DNA from: Eledone cirrhosa
Lineage: Eukaryota
Assembly: GCA_964016885.1 (NCBI GenBank)
Contig: OZ024742.1
Span: 269,700,001 to 269,764,000 of the forward strand
DNA length: 64,000 nt
Direction of reading: 5' to 3'
In this document: one piece after another, positions 1,613-57,836 of the stretch
Numbering within the stretch: the first letter of the stretch is position 1
Layout of the letters: each line of letters begins with the position of its first letter
Made by a program: the position numbers and the translations under genes
Notes under the pieces: model-generated
The model's database searches: none
What the model was told of the DNA's origin: nothing
What the model saw: the letters and a program-made list of their open reading frames with translations, nothing else

Positions 1613-1644
1613 ATATGTATATATATGTATATGTATATATATAT

Positions 1645-2858
1645 AAACGGAAAAAATGAAACGAAATTTCATATCCCACTCTTAGTACGGCTGTTACTTA
1701 AATATAAGCATGTATACATACATATATCTATACAGACGTACAGTAGCATGTATATATATATATACATACATGCACACGTATATATATGTACGTATGGATT
1801 CACCGAACATTTATTATAATGCTCGGTGTGTTTGTAAACAAACAACCCGCATTAAGCCGTAGTGTCCAGCAACCATCGTTGCTCGTTTGTTCAACACTGA
1901 CAAATGAACGTTGTACTAGTTTAAGCTTATTAGCTATCGTCAGCAACGTATACGTTCCTGTCATATTGTTGAACCTATATACTTACCTTATGCATATTAA
2001 CGGCTGAGTAGCCCAATTTGCATATCGCGTGGGTTAATCGGCCGGGTGCATCGAAAACGATAAACGTAAAAGATGAAACGAAATTTCATTTCCCACTCTT
2101 AGTACGGCTGTTATTAAAATATAAGTATGTACACATACATACACATATGAATACAGACGTACAGTAGTATGTATATATACATACATGCACACATATATAT
2201 ATATATATGTACGTATGGATTCACCGAAAATTTATTATAATGCTCGGTGTGTTTGTAAACAAACATCCCGTATTAAGCCGTAGTGTCTAGCAACCATCGT
2301 TGTTCGTTTGTTCAATACTGACGAAGGAACGCTGTACTAGTTTTAAGCTTATTAGCTATCGTCAGCAACATATACCTTCCTGCCAGATTGTTGAACGTAT
2401 ATACTTACCTTATGCATATTAACGGCTGAGTAGCCCAATTTGCGTATCGAGTAGGTTAATCGGCTGGGTGCACCGAAAACGATAAACGTAAAAGATGAAA
2501 CGAAATTTCATTTCCCACTCTTAGTACGGCTGTTACTTAAATATAACTATGTACACATACATACATATATCTATACAGACGTACAGTAGTATGTATATAT
2601 ATATACATACATGCACACATATATATATATGTACGTAAGGGTTCACCGAAAATTTATTATAATGCTCGGTGTGTCTGTAAACACTACGGCTGGACACTAC
2701 GGTTTAATACGGGATGTTTGTTTACAAACACACCGAGCATTATAATAAATTTTCGGTGAATCCATACGTACATATATATATATATGTGTGCATGTATGTA
2801 TATATATATATAAATACTACTGTACCTCTGTATACATATATGTATGTATGTGTACATA

Positions 2859-2862
<4 letters not shown>
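1645..2862 (-). mobile_element. Retrozyme-like array, ~420 bp unit (family B'), head-to-head arms
   Basis: About 2.5 tandem units then an inverted arm from ~2684; flanked by (TA)n; minus-strand HHR motifs at 1908-1949 and 2329-2371 have lost G12. Confidence 0.8.
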
Positions 2863-3280: not shown

Positions 3281-3361
<81 letters not shown>

Positions 3362-3365
<4 letters not shown>

Positions 3366-4402
3366 AATATAGACATAGAATATTCGAAAATATTCTGTAT
3401 GTTTATAATAAACATTTTGAAGACCTAATCGCTATAGAATAGAATACGTCACGTATTACAATTATTATTTATTCCAATTTCTAATTTCTGCCGGACCGGC
3501 AACCGCTCTTTCAAACCAGTTCCTGTACACAGCTAAGTATTCTATAAGTCTCTAGCTGTGTCATTCTCGATAAAAGCACTGGATATGTAGTCCTGAAGAT
3601 TTCTAACAAGAATGAAACGCGTAGATTACTTCCCTTGCTTTTATCGAGAATCTAATTGTAATACGTGACGTATTCTATTCTATAGCGATTAGGTCTTCAA
3701 CATGTTTATTATAAACATAAAGAATATTTTCGAATATTCTATGTCTATATTCACATATATATCGCTATTTCAGAGCATTTATTCCAATTTCTAATTTCTG
3801 CCGGACCGGCAACCGCTCTTTCAAACCAGTTCCTGTACACAGCTAAGTATTCTATAAGTCTCTAGCTGTGTCATTCTCGATAAAAGCACTGGATAAGTAG
3901 TCCTGAAGATTTATAACAAGAATGAAACGCGTAGATTACTTCCCTTGCTTTTATCGAGAATCTAATTGTAATACGTGACGTATTCTATTCTATAGCGATT
4001 AGGTCTTCAAAATGTTTATTATAAACATACAGAATATTTTCGAATATTCTATGTCTATATTCACATATATATCGCTATTTCAGAGCATTTATTCCAATTT
4101 CTAATTTCTGCCGGACCGGCAACCGCTCTTTCAAACCAGTTCCTGTACACAGCTAAGTATTCTATAAGTCTCTAGCTGTGTCATTCTCGATAAAAGCACT
4201 GGATATGTAGTCCTGAAGATTTCTAACAAGAATGAAACGCGTAGATTACTTCCCTTGCTTTTATCGAGAATCTAATTGTAATACGTGACGTATTCTATTC
4301 TATAGCGATTAGGTCTTCAAAATGTTTATTATAAACATACAGAATATTTTCGAATATTCAATGTCTATATTCACATATATATCGCTATTTCAGAGCATTT
4401 AT

Positions 4403-4407
<5 letters not shown>
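3362..4407 (+). mobile_element. Retrozyme array A1: 310 bp unit x3 plus a short inverted arm
   Basis: Unit marker attccaa at 3471/3781/4091/4401; inverted arm 3362-3465; HHRs at 3587, 3897, 4207; TA flanks. Confidence 0.9.
3587..3629 (+). ncRNA. Type I hammerhead ribozyme (representative of the 310 bp family)
   Basis: gtagtc CTGAAGA t ttct aaca agaa t GAAA CGCG TA gattac; stem I extends via ttctcgataaaagca/tgcttttatcgagaa. Confidence 0.85.
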
Positions 4408-10680
<6,273 letters not shown>

Positions 10681-10905
10681 ACAATATATTTAGAAACACA
10701 CAGATACATGCGGACACACACATATACATGAATGCATCCACATCCAACTGTGAGTTAATGGTGCCAACCTTACCGATGTTGCTCAATGAATGACTGGGAC
10801 AGACCAATCCGGTTGAATTAGACTGAACCAGTATATATATGTATGTATATATATATGTATATATATACGTATATATATATATATATTCATATATATATAT
10901 ATATA

Positions 10906-12024
10906 TACAATATTAAATAAATGGAAACTATATTTATAAAACCATATTTATTTCATTATATATATTTCGGGGATATCATATTAACAATATGCTATGCCTT
11001 CCTCAGACAAAATACAATATAAACAGTTTTATAGATAAATAGATTCGACATACCGTTATAACACCGACTTCCATTTGAAGAGGTTTAAGCTGGCAGTGAA
11101 AAAATTTTACACAGAGAGAAAGAAAGAGAGAAAAAAAAAGAGAGAAAAAAGAAAGAAAGACAGAAAACGAAGAAAAGGAAGAAAAAGAAGAAATGCATGG
11201 AACAAAATAGAGAGATGGAAAGATAGATAAAGCGAAGAACTTCATGTAAAGAAACAGAAAGAGATATATATATATATAGAGAGAGAGAGGAAATAGAGAT
11301 AGATACATATATATATAGAAAATTAGGTAGTGGGAGGTCATTTTGAGTAAATGTATCAATGATACATTTATTTATTTATTTATTTATTTAGCTCAAGTAT
11401 TAATGTAAGGGAGATATATATAGAGAGAAAAATATATAGAGAGGAAAAAATAGCGAGAGAAAAAAATTTAAAAATAGCCAGATATATTCGAGGCGTAAAA
11501 ACCCTATGTTTTAATGTATTAGTATTTATAAAACTTACACTATATTGTAAATATCAGTATTCCTGAATGAGACAAGTATCCATAGTGTGTGAAAATTAAT
11601 TATCTTATGTTTAGTTTTAAAAAAATTCATATGTTTATGTGACAGCTACAAACATCCATGCGAATCCATATGATTCACTCTGCAAACTCTAAATTCACGG
11701 AAAACATTCTCAATGTGGTATAAAAATTTGAGCATACATATATGTGTATTATTATTCCTGTCTTTACTCTACAAGATTATCTATCAAGCAGAAATAGAGA
11801 GCAGATTTCAATATACTAATAAAAAATATATATCAGAAACAAAACTAAAAAAATAAAAAGATAACAATAATAATAATAAGTAAAAATAAGTAATAATAAA
11901 ATAGAAAACTAAAAAAATATTACGAAAGAATATTACATAATAAAAATATTACATATTAAAAATATTACGTATTAAAAAATATTACGTATTAAAAATTTAC
12001 ATATTAAAGATATTAAAAAAAAAA

Positions 12025-12064
<40 letters not shown>

Positions 12065-13832
12065 TTTAAAATACTACAATAATAAAAAATAAAAATAAAA
12101 ATAAAGCACGAAGATCAACCCTTCAAAGTTAATTGACAATATATTGCCAAGTTCATTACAAGACAAAGCCAAAAATTATCTATCAAATCACATCTAGCAA
12201 AGATCATTTCAAAAAGTTTATGATGTCCAAATTGGTCTACATATGTTCTTATATTTAATATAGAAGTTTATCTAGTGTAAGGTTTATTCAAAAAATTTGG
12301 AGCATCAGCTTTTAGGGTAGCTTAATTTTTCATGAGGAATGTTTAAATAAAAATTAAAAAAAAGGAATAAAAAGAAGGAATCAAAAATTTAGGAATCAAA
12401 AATTTATCGGCTAGTTTCCCATATAAATATAAATCAAACTAAATATACTACATTTTAAATTTAAATTTATATTTAAACGTTGAGTTTAATCTATGTTTGC
12501 AACAACTGAATAAATTTGTCCGTAGGTTAAGGGAATTTTTAGATTTTAGTATAAAGAATATCTCCTCTGCGCAGAGGTCACATGTCTCAGAGGATGAATT
12601 AAAAGGAATCCCTCTTGAGACTATATTCCAAGCCGTCGAATATCTAACGTTATCTAGCTTAAGTTGCCAGAGTACGCCTGATAGTGCCGTTGAAGATTTT
12701 TTACTTGGATCTGTGAAAGAATTCTTGTGGTTATTATAGCGAAGTTTAAATTCCGTCGATGTGGAACCGACGTAGTTAAAAGAATTAGAGTCAGTATTAA
12801 CATTACAATTGTATACTATATTTTTAACTAAGCAGTTGTTATTTAACGGACATTTAGATCTATCTCTACAGTTACATTTGTTAACTTGTATATTATTTAT
12901 GCTATTATCACTAGGTTTTAAGTTCCTATTATTTATTCTATTAATATTTTGTGCTAAATTTTTGGTGGATGAGTAGGTTAATTTAATTGTATGTCTATTG
13001 AAAATTGAGTGATACCTATGTGTTCTAGGGAAGCGATTATCAAGAGCTTTGAAAAATAATTTAGCGATGTGGGTTTTAATGTTTAGTGAGAAAGGGGGGG
13101 CAAACCAAATTATGTTCCTAGTTCTATTTCTTTTTTGGCCTTTGGAATTATTGTAATGCTTTCTATTATAGTTGTTAATGTTGTTGCCGTAATTAAAAAA
13201 GTTGTTACTTTGTTTAGTTTGTCTATCATTATCTATGTACACAATCTTATCAGCATACTTGAGCTAAATAAATAAATAAATAAATAAATGTATCATTGAT
13301 ACATTTACTCAAAATGACCTCCCACTACCTAATTTTCTATATATATATGTATCTATCTCTATTTCCTCTCTCTCTATATATATATATCTCTTTCTGTTTC
13401 TTTACATGAAGTTCTTCGCTTTATCTATCTTTCCATCTCTCTATTTTGTTCCATGCATTTCTTCTTTTTCTTCCTTTTCTTCGTTTTCTGTCTTTCTTTC
13501 TTTTTTCTCTCTTTTTTTTCTCTCTTTCTTTCTCTCTGTGTAAAATTTTTTTACTGCGAGCTTAAACCTCTTCAAATGGAAGTCGGTGTTATAACGGTAT
13601 GTCGAATCTATTTATCTATAAAACTGTTTATATTGTATTTTGTCTGAGGAAGGCATAGCATATTGTTAATATGATATCCCCGAAATATATATAATGAAAT
13701 AAATATGGTTTTATAAATATAGTTTCCATTTATTTAATATTGTAAATATACTCCAAATATTTGTCGAGTGCTTTTATATCAGTTATAAATATTTACTAGT
13801 TGTAACCCAACAATTTTAAATATAACTTTCCA
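10906..13832 (-). mobile_element. 5'-truncated Penelope-like element (Hydra-clade-like) with inverted pLTR
   Basis: 10908-11400 is the reverse complement of 13255-13743; right arm has an extra ~90 nt tail; GIY-YIG ORF inside; TA flanks; HHR-like CTGAGGA...GAAATATATA at ~13640-13700. Confidence 0.85.
12448..13242 (-). pseudogene. C-terminal part of a PLE ORF: linker, CxCx5Cx5C and GIY-YIG endonuclease
   Basis: WFAPPFS, CNCRDRSKCPLNNNCL, IVYNC...YVGST..FKLRYNNH, CDLCAEE; frame open but truncated at the inversion junction. Confidence 0.88.
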
Positions 13833-13861: not shown

Positions 13862-13921
<60 letters not shown>

Positions 13922-13926
<5 letters not shown>

Positions 13927-16531
13927 AGTATGCATGTATACGTACATACATATATGTATACAGACGTACAGTAGCATGCACATATATATATATATATACA
14001 TATATACATACATATGCATACAGGTACACATACATATATGCACGTATCAGTTTAGCGGCGCTTATTATAACGTCGCTTTGTTCGTTTGTAAACAAACTGA
14101 ACAGCCTGAATTTATGCCATACGGTGTTAAGGCAACCACGTCACCTTTTTGTTCAACACTGACACAGGAACGATGTACTAGTTTCAAGCTTGTTAGCTAT
14201 CATCAGCACCGTTTACCCATCTGCCAGATAGTTGAACGTTCGAAAGTATATACTTTCCTTATGAAAATTAACGGCTGAGCAGCCTAATTTGCATATTGAG
14301 TGAGTTAAATCGGTCAGGCATACCGAAAACGATAAATTGAAACAAAATGAAAACGAAATTTCATTTCTCACTCTTAGTATGGCACTTACTTAAATGTAAG
14401 TATGCATGTATACGTACATACATATATGTATACAGACGTACAGTAGCATGCACATATATATATATATATACATATATACATACATATGCATACAGGTACA
14501 CATACATATATGCACGTATCAGTTTAGCGGCGCTTATTATAACGTCGCTTTGTTCGTATGTAAACAAACTGAACAGCCTGAATTTATGCCATACGGTGTT
14601 AAGGCAACCACGTCACCTTTTTGTTCAACACTGACACAGGAACGATGTACTAGTTTCAAGCTTGTTAGCTATCATCAGCACCGTTTACCCATCTGCCAGC
14701 CGTTAATTTTCATAAGGAAAGTATATACTTTCGAACGTTCAACTATCTGGCAGATGGGTAAACGGTGCTGATGATAGCTAACAAGTTTGAAACTAGTACA
14801 TCGTTCCTGTGTCAGTGTTGAACAAAAAGGTGACGTGGTTGCCTTAACACCGTATGGCATAAATTCAGGCTGTTCAGTTTGTTTACAAACGAACAAAGCG
14901 ACGTTATAATAAGCGCCGCTAAACTGATACGTGCATATATGTATGTGTACCTGTATGCATATGTATGTATATATGTATATATATATATATATATGTGCAT
15001 GCTACTGTACGTCTGTATACATATATGTATGTACGTATACATGCATACTTACATTTAAGTAAGTGCCATGCTAAGAGTGAGAAATGAAATTTCGTTTTCA
15101 TTTTGTTTCAATTTATCGTTTTCGGTATGCCTGACCGATTTAACTCACTCAATATGCAAATTAGGCTGCTCAGCCGTTAATTTTCATAAGGAAAGTATAT
15201 ACTTTCGAACGTTCAACTATCTGGCAGATGGGTAAACGGTGCTGATGATAGCTAACAAGCTTGAAACTAGTACATCGTTCCTGTGTCAGTGTTGAACAAA
15301 AAGGTGACGTGGTTGCCTTAACACCGTATGGCATAAATTCAGGCTGTTCAGTTTGTTTACAAACGAACAAAGCGACGTTATAATAAGCGCCGCTAAACTG
15401 ATACGTGCATATATGTATGTGTACCTGTATGCATATGTATGTATATATGTATATATATATATATATGTGCATGCTACTGTACGTCTGTATACATATATGT
15501 ATGTACGTATACATGCATACTTACATTTAAGTAAGTGCCATACTAAGAGTGAGAAATGAAATTTCGTTTTCATTTTGTTTCAATTTATCGTTTTCGGTAT
15601 GCCTGACCGATTTAACTCACTCAATATGCAAATTAGGCTGCTCAGCCGTTAATTTTCATAAGGAAAGTATATACTTTCGAACGTTCAACTATCTGGCAGA
15701 TGGGTAAACGGTGCTGATGATAGCTAACAAGCTTGAAACTAGTACATCGTTCCTGTGTCAGTGTTGAACAAAAAGGTGACGTGGTTGCCTTAACACCGTA
15801 TGGCATAAATTCAGGCTGTTCAGTTTGTTTACAAACGAACAAAGCGACGTTATAATAAGCGCCGCTAAACTGATACGTGCATATATGTATGTGTCCCTGT
15901 ATGCATATGTATGTATATATGTATATATATATATATATGTGCATGCTACTGTACGTCTGTATACATATATGTATGTACGTATACATGCATATTTACATTT
16001 AAGTAAGTGCCATACTAAGAGTGAGAAATGAAATTTCGTTTTCATTTTGTTTCAATTTATCGTTTTCGGTATGCCTGACCGATTTAACTCACTCAATATG
16101 CAAATTAGGCTGCTCAGCCGTTAATTTTCATAAGGAAAGTATATACTTTCGAACGTTCAACTATCTGGAAGATGGGTAAACGGTACTGATGATAGCTAAC
16201 AAGCTTGAAACTAGTACATCGTTCCTGTGTCAGTGTTGAACAAAAGGGTGACGTGGTTGCCTTAACACCGTATGGCATAAATTCAGGCTGTTCAGTTTGT
16301 TTACAAACGAACAAAGCGACGTTATAATAAGCGCCGCTAAACTGATACGTGCATATATGTATGTGTACCTGTATGCATATGTATGTATATATGTATATAT
16401 ATATATATATATGTGCATGCTACTGTACGTCTGTATACATATATGTATGTACGTATACATGCATACTTACATTTAAGTAAGTGCCATACTAAGAGTGAGA
16501 AATGAAATTTCGTTTTCATTTTGTTTCAATT

Positions 16532-16533
<2 letters not shown>
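13922..16533. mobile_element. Retrozyme array B: 472 bp unit, head-to-head arms
   Basis: ~1.6 minus units (HHRs 14169-14213, 14641-14685), junction CAG at 14697-14699, ~3.9 plus units (HHRs 14761, 15235, 15707, 16179); TA flanks. Confidence 0.9.
15235..15279 (+). ncRNA. Type I hammerhead ribozyme (representative of the 472 bp family)
   Basis: aacggtg CTGATGA t agct aaca agct t GAAA CTAG TA catcgtt; stem I extends via gttcaac..ctggca/tgtcag..gttgaac. Confidence 0.88.
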
Positions 16534-16588
<55 letters not shown>

Positions 16589-18053: not shown

Positions 18054-18298
18054 TAATAACAGAACACACTCACTGTTTGGTTGGTTTTCGATTCTGTATC
18101 TTTTATATAAGTTAATTCATTCGCTTCTCAATGTTTACCATTGACTGACCAACGGTCAAATATACAGATATAATATAGACACAAACATATATATATTGTC
18201 TAACAAAGTTCTTTCGTTGCACATTTGCAACATCGTCAGTGGTGCTATCACATTCCTCCTGTTGTATTGTATATTTAGGCCATCTTTATTTAACCTGT

Positions 18299-18329
<31 letters not shown>

Positions 18330-18670
18330 TTGTTGTCTTCTTCTCTGACTTAAGAGAAATATAAATAAATAAACAGATTAAATAAAGATGGCGTAAATAT
18401 ACAATACAACAGGAGGAACGTAATAGCACTACTGACGATGTTGCAGTTGTGCAACGAAAGAACTTTGTTAGACTATATATATGTGTTTGTGTCTATATTA
18501 TATCTGTATTTTTGAACGTTGGTTAGTCAAGGGTAAACATTGAGGACCGGATGAATTAACTGATATGAAAGATACAGAAGCGAAAACCAACCAAACAGTG
18601 AGTGTGTTCTGTTATTAATTCTGTCAATATTATTACAACAATATGACATTCCCCAAATATAACAATATAT
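18054..18670 (+). mobile_element. Diverged foldback pLTR-like insertion
   Basis: 18054-18310 is inverted at 18360-18618, plus a ~50 nt tail; HHR-like CTGACGA t gttgca..tgcaac GAAA at ~18432. Confidence 0.7.
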
Positions 18671-18671
18671 A

Positions 18672-19207
18672 TGTAGCGACGTGATTAGTCGGTCTGGTCA
18701 CTACTTCTGATCGGATCTGAGAATAGCCCTTAAAAGGACTGTTATCGCATACGGTCTGATCGGATGTGAGTATAGCTCTTAAAAGGACTGTTGTCACATA
18801 CGGTCTGATCGGATCTGAGGATAGCCCTTAAAAGGAATGTTGTCACATACTGTAAGGATGAACAGAAGAAAGCACAAGTTAAAAGGACGAGCACGGCGAG
18901 AGATGTAGTTTCGGTCAGCTATTTATTTTCATACATGAAGCGACGATATAGAGGTACAAAGCGTTGTGTGAGTGACAAGTGTGGCAGAGGAGAGGAACAA
19001 CGATACGCGAGCTGACTCTGCTAAAGTTGACTGGCGAAATTGTTTGGAATCACTCTATTTATACAAAAATAATCGTTTGATGTTTAGCCGCTGCGTAGGC
19101 GTTTTATTTTGGTGGCTTTATGGGTTGTTTGTTTCACGGTGAGGTAGCTAGCTAAGCAGATAGATGGAGCTGTTTATTTCACATATTTTATTTCCGGTGG
19201 CTGTACA
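18672..19207 (-). repeat. 3' LTR (3 internal 49 bp repeats)
   Basis: tgtagcgacgtg...ggctgtaca; purine-rich PPT-like tract adjacent on the minus strand (19208-19222). Confidence 0.88.
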
Positions 19208-20329
19208 TTAGACCCCTGCCAGATCTTTTGTACAACAAAAGAGTGAAATATAGTATAGAAATGAGCCAGTGGTGCATTTGTTATGGCATAGCCCAAGGAG
19301 TGTCCAGCACGTTGTGAAATTTGGTGATCATCGAGTTTAGGACAGAGTCGATGTAGAGATGATATGGTAAGAGGTGTGTGTCGGGAAGAGAAAAGAAAAC
19401 AAAAACTATCAAATGACTTTCACCAGATGTATGCAGGCGTGATGAATGAGCCTGTTGCAATTTCGGTTGAGCTGCCTGTGAATTGCGTGACAAAGAGTCT
19501 AACAGGGCAGTGAAAATAACCGTAATGTTTGAACTGAATAGCCGTAAGCATGTTGCCTAAAAGTAACACTTTGCTCCAAAGCATATGACTTGAGAGAATG
19601 CATGTGGTAAAAAAATAACGAGACATTCTCGAGCTATTGAGTGAATGTTTACGTGAAAAAAGAAGGCCAGTGTTTTGAGGATGCGATTTGTGAAACGCGT
19701 GGTCAAAGAGAAAACATTTGGTAGTGTAAGAGTTAGAGGGACAAAAATATCTATTGCTCAGTGTATGAACCAAAGGTGAAACAAACGTGGTGTGTAGTGT
19801 GCATGAAAAATAGAATTTGTACTCGCCTTGTATGTATATAAAAATTATGGCAATTACACAATTAATATTGCAGAACAAGAAAAATTAAGATTTTTGCAAA
19901 AGACAAGAAAAAAAAATGCTATACACAATGCTATACGCAATTTTTGTTTTTAAATAGTGTTTGTAATAGATAATATTCATAATAAATAATGTTCTTCGTG
20001 ACATGAACACATCGTCACTAAAAATTGCAATTGTTCAAGCAGAAAGTTCATTGTATTTGAAACTGGAATGTTTTTCAAGAAGAATGATTAAGAAACTCAC
20101 TTGTGGTTAACGGTAATTCACATCTTGTTCCAACTTGGCGGGCCAATGGACACGTCGTCCACTTCTCGTGACTGGAGATGAAACAGATGGCTTGCTGGTA
20201 CAGCAATCTGTTGGAGTTTCTGGTGTAGAGACTGTAACAGTATCCATGATGGCTTTTTTTAATCTGTCCACGCTGAGAGAATTTTGTTTACCATCTACAT
20301 CGGGAATAAGATATTTCGGATATTTTTTT

Positions 20330-21400
20330 AGAACATAAGGGCCAGAATATGGAGGTTAAAGATGAGCTGAGATGGTGTCGTTTCGAACGAAAACGTGTGT
20401 CCAATCTTTAATGTCTGAAGGTACATGTGTGGCCGTGTTCTGTTGACGGGTGCTTGCAGGAACAAGTTGAGACATATATTGTCGAAGACGGTGTACGTAT
20501 GATCCTGGGTCTGGAACCTCCTGAGGAGAGATGGGAGAAACCATCTGACCAGGTAGAACCAGGGTGGTGCCGTGCACTAATTCTGCAGGTGTGTGTCCGA
20601 ATTACTCCTTAACGGTGGATCGAATTCCCATAACGATGAGTGGCAAGTATTCAAACCAGTGGGTCTTCTCTGGATATGCTGTTTATTGCAGCTTTCAATT
20701 GGCAATGGGATCTTTCCACGAGACCATTATGTTGCCGGTGATAAGAAGTCTTGCGGATGTGTTTACATCCTAACAGGCGAGTCAGTTTCCTGAAGAGGTG
20801 GGAGACAAACTGGCGTCTTCTGCCCTTTGTTATCTTCACTGGGGCGCCATAACGTGATCCCCAGTGTAAAATCAAAGTTTTAGCTACTGCTTCCGCTGAG
20901 ATATCACTTATGCGAAAAGCCTCAGGCCGTCGGGAAAAACGATCTATGCTGGTGAGCAAGTGTATGCAGTTCTGTGATGGTGGTAGAGGTCCGACGTTGT
21001 CGATATGCACATGATGAAAACGTGCTTCAGGTTGCACGAATGTGCCGAGTGGAGTTTTGATGTGTCTGTTTGACTTTGCTAGGCAATGCAGCTCCTGGAC
21101 CAGTCGCGCACGTCCTTGTTAATGTTAGTCCACACAAAACGAGCAGAGATGAGTTTCGGTGTAGCCCGGATTGGCGGGTGAGACAAGCAGTGTAGAGCAG
21201 AAAAAACTTGTCGACGATGCATCTGTGGTATGTACGCTCGTTCATGACCGGCAGAAAGGTCGCACCAAATTTTTCCCGGAGAAGAAGGAATGGGAACTTG
21301 CTGAAACTTGAGGGATGGTGAATTTCGGAGCTTGATAAACGCTTCATCTGTCTCTTGGTCAGCTGCGATGTGTTGAAGGTCGATGCCTGAATGTACATGT
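20330..21400 (-). pseudogene. Gypsy integrase (frameshifted)
   Basis: RFHHVHIDNVGPLPPSQ, IDRFSRRPEA, HWGSRYGAP, NGLVERSHCQLK, WTHVFVRND. Confidence 0.85.
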
Positions 21401-21551
21401 ATTGCGTTCAGCTGGATTCGGGACAGGGCGTCGGCTGCTACATTCTCTGATTCCTTGATATGCCGAATATCAGTTGATTATTGGGAGACAAAATCCAGGT
21501 GGCGGCGTTCTCTCGGTGAATGTCGATCAGGTTTGGGACGGAACGCATAAA

Positions 21552-23140
21552 CTAGTGGTTTATGGTCGTGTAGATCGCGAAATCCGATCCTTCGAGCATG
21601 TGACGAAAATGTTTTACCGAAAGATAGGTTGCCAAGAGTTCGCGGCCAAACGTATTGTATTTGATTTCTGCAGGTTGCAACAGCTTAGAAAAGAAGGATA
21701 AGGGTTGCCAAACGCCGTCGACATATTGTTGTAAAACGCCTCCAACCGCCGTGTCTGATGCGTCCATTAGCAGCGAAAGAGGAGCGCAAGTTCTGAGGAA
21801 AACGAACATGGAAGCGTTTGCCAACATTTCCTTCAGGCGGTTAAAAGATATTAATTCTTCCTCGTTCAGAGTGACGTCTTCGTATTTCCGAGTCCGGTTG
21901 CGAAGAAGGTCCGTGAAGTATTTGGCTGCGTCAGCACAATGAGGGATGAAACGCCTATAAAAATTCACCAAACCGAGGAATTCCCGCAGTTTCCGAAGTG
22001 ATGTAGGTGCTGGAAAATTGCGGATAGCTACTACTTTCTCAGGAAGGGGACGAATGCCGTCTTTATCCATGATGTGCCCGAGAAAGGACAGTGAAGGAAC
22101 GCCGAGAAGGCACTTGCTGGGGTTGATGATATTACCGTACTCGGCCAAACGTTGGAAAAGAAGATCTAAGTGCTTCTCGTGTTCTTGCTCGGAAGTACTT
22201 GCTACTAGCACGTCGTCGATATACGCGTATACAAAGGGTTGATCGCGTAACGCGGTGTCAATAAACCGCTGACAAGTTTGTGCAGCGTTGCGCAGACCGA
22301 ACGGCATTCGCAGGAATTCAAATAAACCGAACGGTGTTTTGATTGCGGTCTTCGGAATATCTGCAGGCTCCATAGGTATCTGGTTATATGCTCGTACCAT
22401 AACTATGTTGGAAAACATGCGTACGCCTTGCAGAGAGGCAGAAAAGTCGTGAAAGTGAGGTACAGAGTAATTATCGGGTACTGTGAAATTGTTGAGTGCA
22501 CGATAAACTCCACATGGTCGCCAATCATTCTCTGTTTTCTTAGGAACAAGGTGTAGTGGTGCAGACCAGTTGCTGGAGGAAGGGCGAATAATTCCGAGGT
22601 CCAGCATGCGTTGAAACTGCTGTTTGGCGATTATCAATCTGTCTGGAGGCAGTCTACTTGGTTGGGCAGCTGTGGGTGGTCCTCTTGTCTCGATGTGATG
22701 TGTGACACTATGTTTAATAGGTCCATCCTTAAATACCGGGCGAGTGATGTCTGCGTATTTCTGGAGAATGCAGTTGTAACGCGAAGGCTCTGACTGACAA
22801 ATTACAGGGCTCACTGTGGATTGCGTGGTAAATATACCTCTCACAGTGAGGTTTGTGGTGGTGTCAATAAGCCTCCGGTTCTTCATGTCCACCAGAAAGT
22901 AGAAGCGGTGGAGAAAATCGGCTCCTAAGATAGGGGTCGGCAGGTCTGCCACGACGAACACCCAATGAAAACGGCGCCTCAGGCCTAAATTCAAGGTCAG
23001 TGATTTCTCTCCGAAAGTCGGAATTGACGATTGGTTCACTGCCTGCAGAAAGGACGGTGTTGGATGTATTTTGTCCGAGACTAGTGGAACAGGAATAAAA
23101 CTAACCTTGGCTCCTGTATCGACGAGGTAACGGATGCCTG
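21552..23140 (-). pseudogene. pol: Gypsy pol: protease, reverse transcriptase, RNase H
   Basis: [10 protein letters not shown] near 23120; [19 protein letters not shown]; [18 protein letters not shown]; RT motif A decayed ([10 protein letters not shown]). Confidence 0.92.
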
Positions 23141-23493
23141 TCGCTTGGTCGTTGATAAAAAAACAGACGATCTTTCTTCTCAGTACCAGGGGTGAACGTC
23201 GTCGCTAGGCCCTGGGTGGTATTCTGGAAAGAGTACGAGACCTTGCACTTAGATGCCTGTGCGCCGAATTCTGCGTGATACCAGCAGAGGTGGCCAGACA
23301 CACGATTTTGACTGGGACTTCTGGATCTTCGACTGTCAAAAGGCCTGGATCGTCTGTTGCTGCGTCGCCGGTGTGTTTGAAAGGTCAGGTACACTACTTG
23401 ATTTGAGAGGGCTTTAATTTGACCAGCTCGCTCTCTGATCATATCCCGCAGCTCTGATATCTCGGCCTCTGTCGTTGGTTGTGACATGTCCAT
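23101..23493 (-). pseudogene. gag: Gag C-terminal remnant with CHCC-type knuckle
   Basis: RSRSPS...LCWYHAEFGAQASKC; most of gag is missing between the PBS and this fragment. Confidence 0.75.
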
Positions 23494-23519
23494 GTTGGTA
23501 TCTTGTTAGGCTGCTGTCT

Positions 23520-23551
23520 GGTTGCGTGTTCGGATCACGTCGAGGTCACCA
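23520..23551 (-). promoter_or_regulatory. Primer-binding site complementary to tRNA-Trp 3' end (extended)
   Basis: Plus strand ggttgcgtgttcggatcacgtcgaggtcacca matches the metazoan tRNA-Trp 3' end including CCA, 2 nt from the LTR. Confidence 0.85.
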
Positions 23552-23553
23552 AT

Positions 23554-24129
23554 TGTAGCGACGTGGTTAGTTGGTGTGGTCACTACTTCTGATCGGATCC
23601 AAGAATAGCCCTTAAAAGGACTGTTATCGCATACGGTCTGATCGGTCTGAGGATAGCCCTTAAAAGGACTGTTGTCACATACGGTCTGATCGGATCTGAG
23701 GATAGCCCTTAAAAGGACTGTTGTCACATACGGTCTGATCGGATCTGAGGATAGCCCTTAAAAGGACTGTTGTCACATACGGTAAGGATGAACAGACGAA
23801 AGCACAAGTTGAAAGGATGAGCAATGCGAGAGATGTAGTTTCGCCTAGCTATTTATTTTCATACACAAAACGACGATACAGAGGTACAAGGTGTGTGTGC
23901 GTGGCAAGCGTAGCAGAGGAGAGGCACAACGGTATTCGAGTTGACTCTGCTAAAGTCGACTGGCGAGAGTATCTGGAATCACTATTTATACAAAAATAAT
24001 CGCTTGATGTTTAGCCGCTGTGTAGGCGTTTTATTTTGGTGGCTTTAAGGTTGTTTGTTTCACGGAGGGGTAGCTAGCTCAGCAGATAGATGGAGTTGTT
24101 TATTTCACAGATGTTTATCCGGTGGCTTT

Positions 24130-24132
<3 letters not shown>
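23554..24132 (-). repeat. 5' LTR (4 internal 49 bp repeats)
   Basis: Homologous to 18672-19207; TG...CA termini. Confidence 0.88.
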
Positions 24133-28729: not shown

Positions 28730-29147
28730 ACGTTTTTTAATTTGTTTTGCGACAGTTCTTATCTGAAAACGGGTGTTGAGTTATATATTGTTATACTTTG
28801 GGAGGGTCATGCTGCCAATAAAAACACATCCACCTATTGGTTTTCACTTCAATTTATCATACGTTCCAGGTTGGCTGGTTGGTTTGATAACCGGGGGTTT
28901 CTTTTTATATTGTCAAATCTCTTTCGTCACACATTGTGTTACCTCCTCAGTGACTAGGTTTTTATTTTGTGTCTCTCTCCTTTCTTTTGTCCTACACCAT
29001 CTTGTTTTTGTGTGTTGTGTATAAACAACCTTGTATACAAAAAAACCTTCTGGTTTTCGAATCCAATCAACCGGAAACTTATAATAAATTGAAGTGAAAA
29101 CCAATAGGTGCGGGTGTTTTTATTGACAACATGATCCTCCCAAAGTA
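28730..29147 (-). mobile_element. Old foldback insertion with tail
   Basis: 28795-28910 is a diverged inverted repeat of 29030-29146; tail on the left; TA/CA flanks. Confidence 0.6.
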
Positions 29148-32997: not shown

Positions 32998-34458
<1,461 letters not shown>

Positions 34459-39956: not shown

Positions 39957-41423
<1,467 letters not shown>

Positions 41424-42542: not shown

Positions 42543-43910
42543 GTATTAGTGTGTGTGCATCTGTGTGTGTGGCTGTGAGTGTTATTGTGTATGTGTGCCT
42601 CTTGAAAGAAAGATGATAAAATGTGTAGTTATCTCAGGTAGTTTTACGAAAGAAAAGGATTATAGCTTATATGAACTGGTAAGAGTAATTTAATCATGAA
42701 GTTATTTTCCCATATGGTGGATATACTGTTTTTATTTGAAGAGCCTTATCGATTATCTCATTTGATTCTTAAGATGTGCATGGGTCCTTTATTAGAGCTA
42801 TCAATTTACATGCGATGGTTGTGTATAAGGAACATTTAATAAGGAAATGTACCCATATCATGTTGTACACGTGGATATAAAGGCAGCAGCAGATTTTTCC
42901 TCTTTGTTTGTTTTTTTCATATTTCTCGAAAATGTATAAATATATATTAACGTGCATTCGAGTCGTGATAAATAAGCATGAGAGTCGTGATAAAAATAAT
43001 TCTGTATTTCACCTCAATATTTTAAATCAAAATCACAAAATTCTAATTATATTTTAGGGGAATGTTGATGCATGGGGAATGTTGGGAAATGTTGATCCCA
43101 GTCAAATAGAAAGATTGTATATGCACTGGCAATCACTTATTAGATGAAAATATGAAATGCCTACGGATCTGATTCTGGGGAGGAGAAATTTTTAGGAACT
43201 TACATCACAAGTTTCATAAAAATGTTGAGCCTGATGATGACACATTTTACTACATTAGTGTTTCATTTCTTTCATAACATATTTGTATTTAACAAATCTA
43301 TTAAAAAACCGATATATACAATTCGGAATCTATAGTCTACAATTCCAATACATATCATTGCTTTTCAATTTGTATTTGAAGGAATTGTTGATTTTGCTGC
43401 AAAATTTTACAACGAAATGTAGAAAAGCATCGTATTGAATAAATTAAATATTCCAGTAATTCGAATCGGTCCATTCACACACACACACACACACATACAC
43501 ACACACAGACATACACATACGCACACACTCACACACAGACACACGCACACACACACAGGCATACAAACACACAAACACACAGACACACGCACAGTCACAC
43601 ACACACACACATATATATATGTTGTGTAACGAGAGAGACTCCAAGTCTTCATTGATACTTCACTCCGGGAGATGGTCGCTCTGATATATAGCCTAAAACA
43701 TCATTTGCATCCAATTATGTAGACCAGTTCTTTTGGGGTTAATATATTCGATGATCAGTGAGTGGGATTGGCCCTGTGCATGATTTTAAATTTTCCTCAC
43801 TATAGGTAAGTCCCCAGCAGGACTAATCAGCCACACCCGTGATGTTAATGCTTAAGTATCAAATCACGGCATTACTCGAAATCAAGTTACAGCCATCATA
43901 ACTGATCAGG

Positions 43911-45604
43911 TTAAAATACTCCATCTCTGATATCCTACACTAACAAACAAACACGCACAACACACAACCTCACTAAATCTCAACTCAACACTCTCTCCAA
44001 CCTGAAATCGAAGAACCTCATCTACCTCCGCTCCCACAAGGGAAAATAATCACCACAGAGGCCTATAACATCCTGGCCCTCCAACACCTTGACGATGACA
44101 ACCTCTACTCCAAAGTCACAGGAATTACTCCCACGCAGATCGAAGAGTACATCAACGATGCCTGGACCAACATCTGTGATCGGAGACGCTCAGATACAAC
44201 CTCCTCACGAGGAACAGCAGACTACCCGCCTTCTACCACCTTGTGGAAACACACAAACAGGGACCCAACCTGAAGATCAGCCCCATCGTATCGAGCGTCG
44301 AACGACTGCTCTACAAAATATCATGGCTCCTACCCAGAATACTCAAACCCTAACATATATGCTCCTACCCAGAATACTCAAACCCTAACATATATGCCTT
44401 CAGCATTGCTGTGGTCGCTCTATACACCTCGGTCCCGGTGCTCCCGGCCGTTGATATACTGTTGGAATGCGTCCAATCTACCGACCTACACTGCTTCGGG
44501 CTCACTGCCACTGACATCCACCAACTCCTATCCGTCGTCGTTGACAACACATACTTCGGTTTTCTCGACCAAACATACCGGCAGACCACTGGCCTGCCCA
44601 TGGGATCAAGCCTGCCGGGCGTGCTAGCGATCTCATACATGGACAAGGCACTCAACACCTGCCACTCCAACGCCGTCGCCATTTTTCTCAAGGTACGTGG
44701 ATCACATCCTCATCCTCAAAACTTCCCGGTAGATGGCGAACGGAATTCTTGAGACGTTCAACAACACGGACGAGAACATTGATTTCAGTGTTGAACACAC
44801 CAGCGACGACAGGTCACTTGCCCTCCTCGACTTCCGAACAAACATCACGGAGCAGGAAGGGATCCACACCAACTTCTACTGGAAGGCAGCCTGCAGAGAC
44901 TTGTTCGTCCACTACAAGTCTGCCCTCCCTAAAGGCGCTAAAAGAGGGTACATCACGAACGAGATCACGCGAATTAAAAACAGGTGCAGTATTCCTGTGA
45001 GAGGGGTCACTTACACCAAGCGATTCCTCAAAGTGTTGGAGACGAACGGGTACCCTGCCACGCTCACAAACAGAGTAAGAGACACCAGACGCAAGAGGCT
45101 GAGAAACACTCAAGGCAAGTGGTTCCTTAAAATACCACACCTGGGCGAGAATACTACCAACATTATCCCCAGGGTTATACGGAGAGAGGGACTCAACATC
45201 CACCTGGCCTACTTGGACCCTCCCTGCGGCGATGCCTCTCCAGGTAACCCGTGAAATCGACTGACGCGTGTTCCCTCGTGAACTGTCAGAGACGCCATAC
45301 GAACTGTTGCTTACGCACATACGTCGTATAAAGGGTGGAATGTGACAAATACAACGACTACTATATCGGTAGCACAATCCGGCCGCTACATATCCGGATC
45401 AAGGAGTACATCAACACCAGGGCCTCGTCTTTCCGGAAACACATCACCAAATGTGGAAACAAAGACGGAAGGCCCATTGTCACAGTGTTAGCGACAGAAC
45501 TCAACGTCGGCACGCTGCGAATCAAGGAAGCACTTTGGATAAAACGCCTATGGCCACAAATAAATAACCTATCCGAGAGAAGTGAGATGAGGTGGTTGAT
45601 GTAA
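43911..45604 (+). pseudogene. PLE RT plus GIY-YIG, truncated upstream copy
   Basis: VALYTSVP, GLPMGSSL, RYVDH, YYIGSTIRPLHIRIKE, LRIKEALWIK. Confidence 0.88.
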
Positions 45605-46295
45605 ACTAACGAGGCACCAACACACGCACACACTCACACACAGTGACATTAGAACGGTTGTTTTTGTGTGTGAAGCACCGCCACCATCCACCGACCTAAA
45701 AAAAAGAGACCCGGCAGAATACTACTACCAGACGACTATACGACACTGCCAGTACCAAAAAGCCAAAACAGATAAATAGTACGATGGACAGAAAGCTAAC
45801 GCCATCCCACTCCCACAATTAAAAGAACTACTTCGACCTCTGCTTGACCACACGGCTTCCGCGCGTACGCACACTCTGCAGAATATCTCAATTATTCACG
45901 AAGAGTGAACAGCAGAGGACACGTTCCATTCCTCTCCGACAGATAACCCCCCCCCCCCCCCCGCAGAAAAAAACCCAATTTGATGGATGCGAATCCGAAA
46001 TATAGGGACAATTAAATCTCTCCCAAGGTAACTCTATCTCCTGTTACTATTTTTAGTTTTTACGCTCTTTCCTACGTTCCTCTACACACTATACATCTCA
46101 TTCTAGATTCCCTTAAATCTCGAGTTATTTTTATTTTTACGCTCTTTCCTACGTTCCTCTACACACTATACATCTCATTCTACATTCCCTTACATCTCTC
46201 TCTTCACCACCGGATCCTGTTACTCGGAGAATTACCCATCTGCATTGTTGAGGCTTCCAAAACGACCAAAAGATAATAAATCTTATTATTTCACA

Positions 46296-48915
46296 ATGCT
46301 TCAAGCAAACATCAATACTCTCTTATCCTTACACCTGAGCCATGAATTGTTTGCATCCATAAGGGAACTCTTTAGACTGTCGGAGAAATGGGCCAGTGTT
46401 GGCTGTCAAATTATTTTCCTGAAACGCTGCCTAAAAAACGATGTCATTCCCACCACCATCAGAAATATTCGCCTACCAGGATGCCTACGTACACCGGCTT
46501 TTCAAAACACTGCTAGCCACATACACCACTCGTGTATCAAACAGATCCTACGACATTTCAACCGCGAATTACACATCCATAAGCGGACACTCTCAGAGCG
46601 GAAACATCCACTAACAATAACACCCGGCGACTTGCTCCTTAAAATCACAAAAGCAATCAACCAGTGCTACCACTCCAGAGTCCAACACGAAAAGAAACGG
46701 CTCATACGGAAATATAAGTGGATCTTACTTAAACTCCGCAACGAGAACACCGACACTAACAAACAGACAGACCAGAACCATGTGACAAACAGTAACGTAA
46801 CAACCGCCGCCGCCACATCCACCAACACCGAGCCACACCTCAACGATGCAACGTACCTGGTCACCGACCTAACCGGAACCCTCACGAACGATGAGCTCGA
46901 ACTCCTACGACTCGGACCCAAGTTCATCGTCTCACAACGACTCGACGATAGACTCAAACTCGACATCGAAGTCAACTTCTATCGAGCCGCCTACCAACTT
47001 AAATGTGTGACCGCCATCAACAGCACCACGGAAAATAACAGCGCCCACACAACCCGCCCCAAGTTCCCCATCTACCACCTCGACAACCCACTCCACACCC
47101 CACTCATCAACCACGAACTCGAAACTAAACTCAACAGATTAAAACACTCCATCTCTGATATACTACACAAACACACACACCGCACAACACACAACCTCAC
47201 TAAATCTCAACTCACCACTCTCTCCAACCTGAAATCGAAGAACCTCATCTACCTCCCCTGCGACAAGGGAAAGACATTCTGCGTTATCAGCAGAGAGGCC
47301 TACAACACACTGGCGCTCCAACACCTTGGCGATGACAACCTCTACTCCAAAGTCACAGGAATCACTCCCGCGGAGATCAAGGAGATCATCAACACCACCT
47401 GGACCAACATCTGCGACCGGCGGAAGCTCCCGAAGAAGCTCAGTACAACCTCCCCACGAGGAACAGCAGACTACCCACCTTCTACCACCTTGTGAAAACA
47501 GACAAACATGACCCGACCTGAAGATCAGCCCCATCCTATCGATCATGGAAGGAACGTTCTACAAAATAGCATGGCACCTAGGCAGAATACTCAAACCTAT
47601 ACTAGACATCTTGCCGGGCCACGTAAATAGCTCCGAGGAGTGGTTGGACCACCTGCATCAAATGGATATCGACACCAGAAAGCCTAACATATATACCTTC
47701 AGCCTTGATGTGGTCGCTCTTTACACCTCGGTTCCAGCGCTCCCGGCCGTTGATATACTAATGGAACGCGTCCAATCTACCGACCTACACTTCTTCGCGC
47801 TCACCACCACTGACATCCACCAACTCCTATCTGTCGTCGTTGACAACACATACTTCGGTTTTCTCGACAGTACATACCGCAGACCTCGGGGCTACCCATG
47901 CGCACAAGCCTGTCGGGTGTGCTAGCGATCTCATACATGGACAGCCTCGAGCGCAAGGCACTCAACACCTGCCAACCCAACGCCGTCGCCATTTTTCTCA
48001 AGGTACGAGGATGACATCCTCATCCTCACATCTTTTCAGGAGATGGCGAACGGAATTTTTGAGACGTTCGACAACACGGACGAGGACATTAATTTCAGTG
48101 TTGAACATCCCAGCGACGACGGGTCACTGGCCCTCCGCGACTTCAGAATCAACATCACGGTGCAGGAAAGGATCCACTCGAACTTCTACCGCAAGGCAGC
48201 CTGCAGGGACTTGTTTGTGCACTACAAGTCTGTCCTCCCTAACAGCGCTAAAAAAGGGTACATCACCAACGAGATCACGCGAATTAAAAACAGATGCAGC
48301 GATCCCCTTAGTGGTGTCACCTACACCAAGCGATTCCTCAAAGTAATGGAGACGAACGGGTACCCTGCCTCGCTCACAAACAGAGTAGCAGACACCAGAC
48401 GCAAGAGGCTGAGAAACAGCCAATGCAAGTGCTTCCTTAAAATACCACACCTGGGCGAGAATACCACCAACGCTATCTCCAGGACTATACGCAGAGAGGG
48501 CCTCAACATCCACCTGGCCCACCCGGGCCCCTCCCTGCGGAGATGCCGCTCCAGGAAACCCGGGCAATCGACTGAAGCGTGTTCCTTCGTAAACTGTCCG
48601 ATGCGCCATACGAAATGTTGCTTAAACACCTATGTGGTATACAGGGTGGAATGTGACAGGGGCAACGACTACTATATCGGTAGAACAATCCGGGCGCTAC
48701 GTATCCGGATCAAGGAGCGCATCAACACCAGGGCCTCGTCTTTCCGGAAACACATCATCAAAGGCGGAAACATAGACGGAAGGCCCATTTTCACAGTGCT
48801 AGCGACAGAACTCAACGTCGGCACGCTACGAATCAAGGAAACACTTTGGATCAAACGCCTAGGACCACAAACAAATAACGGATCCGAGAGAAGCGAGATG
48901 AGGAGGTTGGTGTAA
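46296..48915 (+). pseudogene. PLE full-length ORF (RT plus GIY-YIG), frameshifted
   Basis: FLKRCLKNDVIP, LLRLGPKF, CDKG, FSLDVVALYTSVP, RYEDDIL, VVYRVEC...YYIGRT. Confidence 0.9.
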
Positions 48916-49550
48916 ACTAACGCGGTACCAACACACGCACACACTCACACACAGTGACATTAGAACGGTTGTTTTTGTGTGTGTAACACCGCCACCATCC
49001 TCCGACCTAAAAAAAAGAGACCGGCAGAATACTACTACCAGACGACTATACTACACTGCCAGTACCGAAAAGCCAACATAGATAAATAGTACAATTGACT
49101 GACAGCTAACGCCATCCCATTCCCACAATTAAAATAATTATTTCGACCTCTGCTTGACCACACCGATTCCGCGCGCACCCGCGCTCTGCAGATTACCTCA
49201 ATTAGTCATTAAGAGCGAACAGCAGATGACACGTTCCATTCTTCTCCGACAGATAATCTTCACCCCGGAAAACTCCCAGTTGATGGATGCGAATCCGAAA
49301 TATACGGACAATTAAATCTTTCCCAACGTAACTCTATCTAGTGTTATTATTTTTAGTTTTTACGATCTTTCCTACGTTCCTCTACACACTATACATCTCA
49401 TTCTACATTCCCTTACATCTCTCACTTCACCACTGGATCCTGTTATCAGGAGAATTACCCATCTGCATTGTTGAGGCTTACAAAACGACCAAAAGATGAT
49501 AAATCTTATTATTCCACAAAGCTTCAAGCAAAATTCAATACTCTCTTATA

Positions 49551-49587
<37 letters not shown>

Positions 49588-49589
49588 GA

Positions 49590-50168
49590 TTAAACGAAAT
49601 TTCATTTCTCACTCTTAGTACGGCTGATACCTAAATATAAGCATGTATACGTACATACATATATGTGTACAGGCGCACAGTAGTATGTATATATATGTAT
49701 ACATACATGCACACATATATATATATGTACGTATGGGTTTACCGAACATTTATTATAATGCTCGGATTGTTTGTAAACAAACAGCCCGAAGTATGCCGTA
49801 CAGTGCTCGGCAACCATCGTCACCCCTTTGTTCAACTCTGACACAGGAACGATTTACTAGTTTCAAGCTTATTAGCTATCGTCAGCATCGTATACCTTCC
49901 TGTCAGATGATTGAACGTCTGTAAGTATATTAACGGCTGAGCAGACTAATTTGCATATCGAGTGAGTTAATGGGCCGGGCATACCGAAAACGATAAGTGA
50001 AAAAGAATGAAACGAAATTTCATTTCTCACTCTTAGTACGGCTGATACCTAATATAAGTATGTATATGTACATACACATATGTGTACAGACGCAGAGTAG
50101 TATGTATATATATATATATATACATATTTGCACACACACATATATATATATACGTATGTATATACATA

Positions 50169-50171
<3 letters not shown>
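49590..50171 (-). mobile_element. Retrozyme family B' (418 bp unit), 1.3 copies with a tiny inverted arm
   Basis: Intact minus core CTGACGA tagct aata agctt GAAA CTAG TA at ~49849-49891; inverted stub ends catactta as in other family B arrays. Confidence 0.78.
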
Positions 50172-50231
<60 letters not shown>

Positions 50232-52600: not shown

Positions 52601-52603
<3 letters not shown>

Positions 52604-52992
52604 ATGTATGGTAGTATATTTGGCAATATAATGTATGTTTAATTAAAGACATTTTGAAGACCTTGCGCTATTATTTTAAAGTAGTGATATGACACTTACT
52701 GCTTTTTTCAGTAAAGGAAGGGGGATGAGCTGACAGATCTGGTTCTCACTGTTGGTGTTCATCAAAGCCTAGCATTCGCCGATCTTCGCCGAAAATTATA
52801 TAGGCTGGATTCTTATAGAATTCAAGTAATAATGAGGAACTGATTATACAGAGCGATTGCCGGTCCAGCAAAAATCGAAAATTAGGATTGGTGCTCTGGA
52901 ATAGCGATGTATACATGAATGTATGTATAGTGTATTTGGCAATATAGTGTATGTTTAATTAAAAACATTTTGAAGACCTTGCGGTATTATTT

Positions 52993-53055: not shown

Positions 53056-53121
<66 letters not shown>

Positions 53122-53805
53122 GGATTTAAATGGATACAGTTCAGTTAAAAGGAATTTATTGACACGTGTTTCAATAACAGTTACATAACCTGAAAACAGC
53201 TGCTATCTACAAAGTATTAATTATGCAGACATTCAATATTTCAGTGTTATTATCAACTGTCATTTCATCAGAATAATTTTATTGAGAACCTGTTTGGTTT
53301 TTATAGAGAATATTAAGAGGGAGGGGTGAAGAATAGTTAAGGGAGTGGATAGAGAATTTTTTTGATAGCAGTGCGAATTTATGGTAGCAGTGAGTAATTA
53401 GATTCCCATCTGTTGTTTTGACATTTTTATAGAATACATTAATTGGCGTTGGTTATTTTTCTAAATCTATAGAAGTATTAGAGATAGTAAAGATATGCAT
53501 GGTTGGTTTTGTGTTTGCACTTAATTAACATACAGACTTAAATTTTTCTTTCAAGTGTACGTATCCGTTCGCCCACACATTCACACACAAACATATATGC
53601 ACACCTCTACAAAATACATACACTCACATACACGTACTTACATGCTCATACCTACATACATATATACCTGCACATATATATATATACATATATATACATA
53701 TATATATGTACATTCATACGCATTCATGTATATACATTTTCATACTCAACTTATCTTCATATACACACGTATAGGCACACACATATATACATACATACTC
53801 CTGTC

Positions 53806-56429: not shown

Positions 56430-56549
56430 TGTTGTGGTTACGTTTGCTGTGTGTGTTGCTCAACTTTACAGGAGGTAAATATATAGTATTTTCCGTAGTG
56501 TTGTCCCTCTTAATATTCTCTATAAAAACCAAACAGGTTCTCAATAAAA

Positions 56550-56670
56550 TTATTCTGATGAAATGACAGTTGATAATAACACTGAAATATTGAATGTCTG
56601 CATAATTAATACTTTGTAGATAGAAGCTGTTTTCAGGTTATGTAACTGTTATTGAAACACGTGTCAATAA
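56550..56670 (+). ncRNA. pLTR type I hammerhead with enlarged loop II
   Basis: ttatt CTGATGA aatgacagtt [~72 nt] aactgttatt GAAA CACGTG TC aataa; mirror copy 53156-53276 (-). Confidence 0.82.
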
Positions 56671-56814
56671 ATTCCTTTTAACTGAACTGTATCCATTTAA
56701 ATCCTTCTATTTTCTCCGGATTACTTTTGAAACTACAACTGGAACAGTCGAGCAAACTCTACGTGAGGTGTCCATCTACTGTGTGTAATATTCATATTAC
56801 AACACTACGGAAAA

Positions 56815-57788: not shown

Positions 57789-57836
57789 TATTATACATAT
57801 TTCGGATGTACAACAGTACGTCCTCATCAGACAACA
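57789..57836 (-). ncRNA. Hammerhead-like motif in a pLTR end
   Basis: tgttgt CTGATGA ggacgtac tgtt gtacatcc GAAA TATG TA taata; stem I register uncertain. Confidence 0.6.

Follow-up and report, generated by a model that had tools for sequence, protein, structure and literature searches.

Two families of short non-coding tandem arrays in the genome of Eledone cirrhosa end at two fixed internal positions of the repeat unit, one in each of two inverted arms. We consider it probable that these ends are sites at which the reverse transcriptase (RT) of a Penelope-like element (PLE) starts in trans on a non-coding retrozyme RNA, which was probably a monomeric circle. The fixed ends are real, and they are mostly explained by known PLE biology. 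Earlier proposals have addressed how animal retrozymes insert and whether they are copied from a circular RNA, but neither point has been demonstrated. The arrays were studied in the window (the whole 64,000-nt stretch of DNA analysed, positions 269,700,001 to 269,764,000 of contig OZ024742.1) and across the host genome, which is AT-rich, 3.0 Gb long and abundant in microsatellites.

Retrozyme arrays and their outer ends

The tandem units are low in GC and measure 310 nt in family A, 321 nt in A′ and 472 nt in family B. No ORF of at least 150 aa was found inside the arrays, and A and B lack the RT and GIY-YIG ORF of an autonomous PLE. As read from the sequence, A and B units each carry a type I hammerhead core with a palindromic stem III, and the hammerhead of A′ is decayed. 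The best Rfam match of the A1-type hammerhead unit was HH9 (E 0.041, 19 bits, with a gathering score of 52), and no window hammerhead matched at the gathering threshold. So far as sequence criteria reach, A and B fit non-LTR retrozymes, and their RNAs may self-cleave and form circles. In the accessible parts of the literature, metazoan non-LTR retrozyme units are given as 150–450 bp (PMC7229834, bioRxiv 10.64898/2026.07.22.740005, PMC4209133), which the 472-nt B unit slightly exceeds. Positions in units are counted from the predicted hammerhead cut, which in the last unit of insertion A1 falls after 4243; the two end sites are referred to as X and Y. The insertions of the window are as follows.

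1643..2683, minus strand: insertion B′, arm ending at X
2689..2862, plus strand: insertion B′, arm ending at Y
3355..3464, minus strand: insertion A1, arm ending at Y in (TA)n
3467..4408, plus strand: insertion A1, other arm, with 3.0 units (310 nt each) and an X end (attccaat) in (TA)n
4207..4249, plus strand: type I hammerhead in the last unit of insertion A1 (stem I gtagtc/gattac, CTGA-GA, GAAA, palindromic stem III)
4407..5332, no strand: (TA)n target tract common to A1 and A2
5331..7244, minus strand: insertion A2, arm of 6.2 units (1,914 nt, the shorter arm), ending at X
7244..9335, plus strand: insertion A2, other arm, with 6.7 units and a Y end (tatgtctata)
13919..14697, minus strand: insertion B1 (472-nt unit), arm ending at Y (catacttacat)
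14693..16534, plus strand: insertion B1, 3.9 units, ending at X (+316)
33278..33461, minus strand: insertion B2, arm ending at Y
33458..34458, plus strand: insertion B2, other arm, truncated at +28, without a TA tract
40791..41373, plus strand: insertion A′ (321-nt unit, decayed hammerhead)
49587..50172, no strand: insertion B″, with a minus arm whose X-side end is degenerate (49587) and a short plus arm with Y at ~50172
52601..52992, minus strand: A″, single arm ending at Y

Insertions are built of two arms, and the ribozyme-sense 3′-end of each arm faces outward into (TA)n. In family A, X lies at +165 and Y at about +125 to +139. The original prediction was correct in placing family A ends at attccaa(t) (4407/4408 and 5331–5333, 164–165 nt past the cut), the A′ end at the homologous site 41373, and B/B′ ends at catactta(c/t)at (~13920, 33280, 2862 and 50172). 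The plus arm of A′ (40837–41373) stops at X, and a very short inverted arm stops near Y. The other B-type arms were said to end ~60 nt further on; this is so for B1 (16531–16534, +316) and B′ (1643–1646), but the end at 34458 is truncated and that at 49587 degenerate. The prediction also gave family A one end site: X is indeed fixed, but the second site, Y, had been left out. Between X and the ribozyme A and B are distantly related, and their alignment brings the two X sites together (score 91 vs 60 ± 9).

To the sides of A1 and A2 the (TA)n tracts (4407–5332 and 9332–10689) are 0.9–1.4 kb long. They contain repeated TTCATA interruptions (21 in one tract; 12 plus 3 reversed in the other) that resemble the Y-site junction; these may reflect either ordinary slippage or reiterative copying at Y.

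For family A we assembled a sample of 38 stretches around the best 150 of 218 matches (40 of 63 candidates scored). These were picked by similarity, independently of their ends, and together with the two window copies gave 28 complete insertions. Every one of the 28 has one X end and one Y end. X falls at +165 in 21 cases and at 159–172 in the others, while Y falls at 127–139, its true start being blurred by an AT run at 132–139; thus all 56 outer ends lie within 159–172 or 127–139. A 15-nt interval holds 28 ends, compared with 7.3 expected, a value reached in none of 2000 simulations. Ten more complete family A insertions also paired X with Y, so that 38/38 among those examined show the PLE footprint of an inverted 5′-truncated copy with a one-ended tail. 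Of the 28 insertions, 15 have X on the longer arm and 13 have Y there, and in A2 the X arm is the shorter, which contradicts the suggestion that long arms end at X and short arms at Y. Arm lengths are uncorrelated (rho 0.19, P 0.33), and TA tracts following X and Y do not differ in length (P 0.68).

The pairing can also be seen on a larger scale. A genome-wide pattern search revealed 1,013 exact junctions of family A X with (TA)n, so that at least this number of X ends is dispersed across the genome, and no (TA)n junction within 12 nt of the predicted cut. A Y pattern with a similarly variable gap does match (858 on the forward strand; reverse counts are inflated by overlaps). The genome-wide tally thus bore out the expectation of ends at fixed sites, none of them at the cut. 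In the first 96 Mb of one contig, 33 X and 54 Y ends formed 29 adjacent outward XY pairs, with no XX and no YY pairs; this set partly overlaps the 28-insertion set. Partners of the 4 X and 25 Y ends left unpaired there possibly miss the exact pattern.

In family B (20 stretches), ends lie at +316 and at +251 to +257, and most complete copies have X and Y; a few arms stop in an internal TA run, and the arms of one apparent XX copy differ in haplotype and age, one being young and the other old. A′ copies end at the homologous sites, with one XX insertion (L122/L129) among 30 loci. One family A locus (L061, 1746–3685), whose arms leave the family at +292, within hammerhead stem II, and end there in TA-rich DNA, was omitted from the pairing count; one of its arms runs into N. 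Single-armed or unfinished loci (L042, L044, L052, L057, L058, L067, L083, L150, L153 and L155) were also omitted. Where the outer end of one of these ten loci could be resolved, it stops at X or Y (9/9); at L057 one arm is cut by the contig start and the other ends near Y without TA. L083 (811–2812) is a single-armed family A copy that lies in a family B array, within its internal TA run. A single family A insertion outside a microsatellite (L038) is flanked by a target duplication of 8–12 bp.

Penelope-like elements and a candidate start-site fold

A PLE is present in the window itself.

43900..49549, plus strand: decayed autonomous PLE, partial tandem, with a GIY-YIG match

Near 49280 it carries a hammerhead-like motif, and at 49549 it has an X end of its own in (TA)n; relatives of this element with long open frames encode RT and GIY-YIG. 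A young PLE family of the same genome (L175–L204) has intact ORFs of 887 aa, copies that are ~99% identical, and insertions in (TA)n. These young PLEs have two end sites ~44 nt apart, and X and Y are paired in 7/7 two-armed copies (30 loci). The retrozymes therefore show the exact footprint of young, intact PLEs residing in the same genome. We conclude that the retrozyme ends are likely the PLE tail footprint, and we infer from the analogy that they would be the RT start sites of a PLE enzyme. The hammerhead-like core of the young PLEs begins with TTGATG, as compared to CTGATG, and some of their insertions have two full-length arms. A protein named from Octopus bimaculoides matches a PLE protein of this genome at 54%.

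Internal initiation was already known, since the tail of a PLE of Anolis (Poseidon; Frangieh et al. 2024) has been shown in vitro to span two internal RT start sites (PMC11167929). In that system both target strands are cut and extended, ~55–60 nt 3′ of the start are required, and the main substrate is unprocessed linear RNA, with the hammerhead being dispensable (PMC11167929). The retrozymes resemble Poseidon in having two adjacent end sites downstream of the hammerhead cut, not at the cut, and an AT-rich target, and would share with it the extension of both strands and the need for sequence 3′ of the start. There are differences as well (PMC11167929). Poseidon RNA is protein-coding and linear in vitro, whereas the retrozyme units are non-coding and their arms multi-copy; Poseidon starts ~85–92 nt past the cut, the retrozymes 125–316 nt; and no difference between strands was seen in the sites used by Poseidon, whereas retrozyme sites are paired, one per arm.

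For EN+ PLEs, the available portions of two papers (PMC8557442, PMC3846280) describe a tail, a 30–40 bp extension often at one end only, and mention multicopy non-autonomous Chlamys elements. As far as those portions go, the likeness extends to the inverted 5′-truncated copy, the preference for (TA)n and the palindromes at the inverted junction, and target duplications of 8–10 bp (PMC3846280, in its accessible part) compare with the 8–12 bp at L038. Unlike EN+ PLEs as described there, the retrozymes have no ORF, a tail of ~60 nt in family B, and up to 19 + 11 units. No autonomous partner resembling A or B was found among the top-scored candidates of PLE searches. Alignment of A and B with the PLE family of the window did not stand out from shuffled sequences (P 0.87 and 0.13, respectively), and in a comparison of the young PLE family with A and B sequence only nested copies matched.

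A predicted fold surrounds X in both families.

4082..4129, plus strand: predicted start-site fold of a complete A unit, with outer helix AGAGC/GCTCT and a 22-nt unpaired linker containing X
16019..16094, plus strand: predicted start-site fold of a B unit, with outer helix GAGTGAG/CTCACTC, an inserted hairpin and a 22-nt linker containing X

A hairpin is predicted 10 nt 3′ of X in A, and a small one 5 nt 3′ of X in B. We described this arrangement as an outer helix of 5–7 bp, X in the linker, and a small hairpin 5–10 nt 3′ of X. At X the descriptor fits families A, A′, B, B′, D and C as well as two PLE families, with 0–5.3% of shuffles reaching the score; it was devised after inspection of A, B and one PLE, so that only C is fully held out (P 0.03). 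As the descriptor places it, the linker of both A and B is 22 nt long and that of PLEs 25 nt. Other positions score as high (10/455 in B and 26/304 in A′), and the fold stretch of PLEs is coding. Pairing in the outer helix reaches 90% across 17 B-type copies, and three related copies carry a single A-U to G-C swap; A-type copies have one-sided changes only. RNAalifold found no useful structure in a B alignment without the 5′ strand of the outer helix. The position of the fold agrees with the published need for ~55–60 nt 3′ of the start. We regard this helix-linker-hairpin, as modelled, as a candidate RT-recruiting element.

The template, joining of the arms and alternative readings

The original prediction placed the cDNA start at an internal position away from the ribozyme-made end, which the ends support, except that there are two such sites, one per arm. 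It also took fixed ends to fit a circular or multimeric template. Fixed internal ends do not by themselves imply a circle, since in vitro a PLE initiates internally on RNA that is linear and uncleaved. The idea of a circular or multimeric template nevertheless stands, as sequence runs on across the cut: among 275 cut-site crossings, 2 have deletions, and in 36 others the differences are confined to haplotype changes found throughout the array, apart from an extra substitution in one of them.

Variation within the arrays bears on the choice between circle and multimer. Of 82 non-singleton variants, 77 are common to both arms, none is arm-specific and 5 are partial. The majority sequences of the two arms are identical in 20/21 insertions, as compared to 26/553 between-insertion pairs, and 18 haplotypes are found among the 28 family A insertions. 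In a 9-locus subfamily carrying a 2-nt deletion, five loci have an extra substitution in every covering unit; there are four different substitutions, and both arms are affected in all three two-armed loci. Recurrent single-unit variants at 120, 244 and 28 were excluded because they equal the query unit and are thus favoured by similarity ranking. The array-wide one-step variants of the 9-locus subfamily point to passage through one monomer, and haplotype fixation favours a monomer circle with both RTs on it. Equal arms are also expected from two RNAs of one source locus, and assembly polishing or conversion could contribute to array homogeneity.

Two insertions are mosaic. At L048 (1436–4701) a variant alternates between units, with a period of 2, in both arms and out of phase; L149 (1409–8287) has a period-7 pattern in one arm and a variant in one unit per arm. 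These mosaics point to multimeric templates or to later local duplication and conversion, and the periodic variants may record dimeric or larger templates. Three units are locally duplicated at L037.

The arms have scattered inner ends, of which 2 of 66 fall no more than 10 nt from the cut, compared with 4.3 expected (Rayleigh P 0.09), with neither a pile-up at the cut nor an avoided region. Of 40 inner junctions, 18 have extra bases. The remaining 22 joins overlap by ≥3 nt in 10 cases (6.5% under the null) and by ≥5 nt in 6 (0.9%), an excess of microhomology that is expected if two cDNA ends anneal.

Priming at two sites by the PLE could have operated on a long linear, uncleaved multimeric transcript, the hammerhead being of minor importance in copying. 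This reading has the anole PLE in its favour, for which unprocessed RNA is the main substrate (PMC11167929), as well as the poor cleavage, as monomers, of hammerheads with a short palindromic stem III, noted in the accessible parts of PMC4209133 and PMC7229834. The L048 pattern is consistent with a single linear template on which X lies one unit downstream of Y, L149 is also mosaic, and seamless crossings of the cut together with scattered inner ends suit a linear multimer equally. A fresh mutation on such a template would, however, occupy one unit, whereas 5/9 subfamily loci have the one-step variant in all; only 5/82 non-singleton variants are partial; and the 9 loci that share the L048 deletion include no array with the L048 pattern that could have been its source. 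We therefore consider a linear multimer unlikely.

The identity of the arms might alternatively arise if one RT-made arm folded back its 3′-end and was copied as the second arm, with the endonuclease trimming the ends. Self-priming has been proposed in PMC3846280 and EN-mediated tail resolution in PMC8557442, both known to us in part; the reading accounts for identical arms and for the shared variant of L149, and inner junctions at L045, L048 and L054 are palindromic. Since the longer arm may be at either site (15 vs 13) and lengths are uncorrelated, such a copy would have to choose the opposite site every time, having already run through many units. The variant orders in the two arms of L048 are not copies of each other, and both sites serve as RT starts on both strands in vitro (PMC11167929), which makes the fold-back quite improbable. 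We give hardly any credence to ends set by (TA)n homology or TA-tract recombination, with arrays growing locally like satellites. Family A Y does overlap the longest AT run of the unit, some B arms stop in an internal TA run, the duplication at L037 is local, and local amplification has been suggested (bioRxiv 10.64898/2026.07.22.740005). Yet X shares merely 2–3 nt with (TA)n, family B Y lies 57–63 nt away from its 17-nt TA run, and the target duplication of L038 lies outside a microsatellite. Inverted single-haplotype arms with few singletons at dispersed loci are not the outcome of unequal crossover, and the end, genome-wide junction and target-duplication results largely refute this reading.

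Under the preferred reading of PLE initiation at X and Y on a circle, arrays would be transcribed, and hammerhead cleavage and ligation would yield a circle of 310 nt (A) or 472 nt (B). The PLE protein would bind the predicted helix-linker-hairpin at X and nick both strands of the (TA)n target. One 3′-OH would prime at X and the other at Y, 26–40 nt (A) or ~60 nt (B) upstream, with 1–9 nt of possible pairing with the target; the footprint of this step is observed, while the enzymology is assumed by analogy. Both cDNAs would make 0.1 to 19 turns of the template, then stop at the scattered sites and join head to head via microhomology or a few extra bases, as the observed inner junctions suggest. 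Tentatively, and at somewhat less than an even chance, a PLE dimer may load onto one monomeric circle through a conserved helix-linker-hairpin, its two RT sites starting at X and Y, each from one end of a single DNA break, and copying the circle by rolling circle; unrelated ribozyme circles would capture the enzyme by mimicking this fold and not by sequence similarity.

Relation to earlier work and other repeats of the window

Several elements of this scheme are in print: the circle hypothesis for retrozymes (accessible parts of PMC4209133 and PMC7229834), their PLE origin (bioRxiv 10.64898/2026.07.22.740005), two-site internal initiation (PMC11167929) and, in the portions available, the one-sided PLE tail (PMC8557442, PMC3846280). 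The retrozyme papers, in their accessible parts, make no mention of insertions with two inverted arms, of ends that are fixed and paired, of a haplotype common to both arms, or of a fold at the start site. The wider literature searched, with supplements in part, likewise contained no report of paired X/Y ends, arm haplotype sharing or a shared fold in retrozymes. A 310-nt RNA, an 887-aa candidate enzyme, two predicted starts and a candidate fold make the scheme testable by the published in vitro assay. The rule of one site per arm constrains how the two active sites of the predicted PLE dimer are used.

Three runs labelled as other organisms each contain one 340-nt contig (310 + 30) that matches window positions 7350–7969. 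This is the shape a cyclic unit takes in an assembly graph, with which tandem DNA and circular RNA fit alike.

Elsewhere in the window, at least five further short repeats contain hammerhead-like cores; two of these repeats occur as inverted pairs.

18055–18620: hammerhead-like repeat (family C)
28794–29147: hammerhead-like repeat
40300–40677: hammerhead-like repeat
53118–53322 with 56504–56708: hammerhead-like repeat
57800–57830: hammerhead-like repeat

Family C likewise has two ends, ~50 nt apart. An LTR retrotransposon occupies 18706–24130 on the minus strand, with matches to protease, RT, RNase H and integrase, and its LTRs contain a 49-nt tandem repeat. A 494-bp inverted repeat with 96.6% identity (10907–11400 and 13255–13743) flanks a 271-aa stop-free frame without a Pfam match. 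Finally, a direct repeat of ~580 bp (59585–60151 and 63420–64000) flanks a frame with a zf-RVT match; this is probably a tandem or nested non-LTR retrotransposon.
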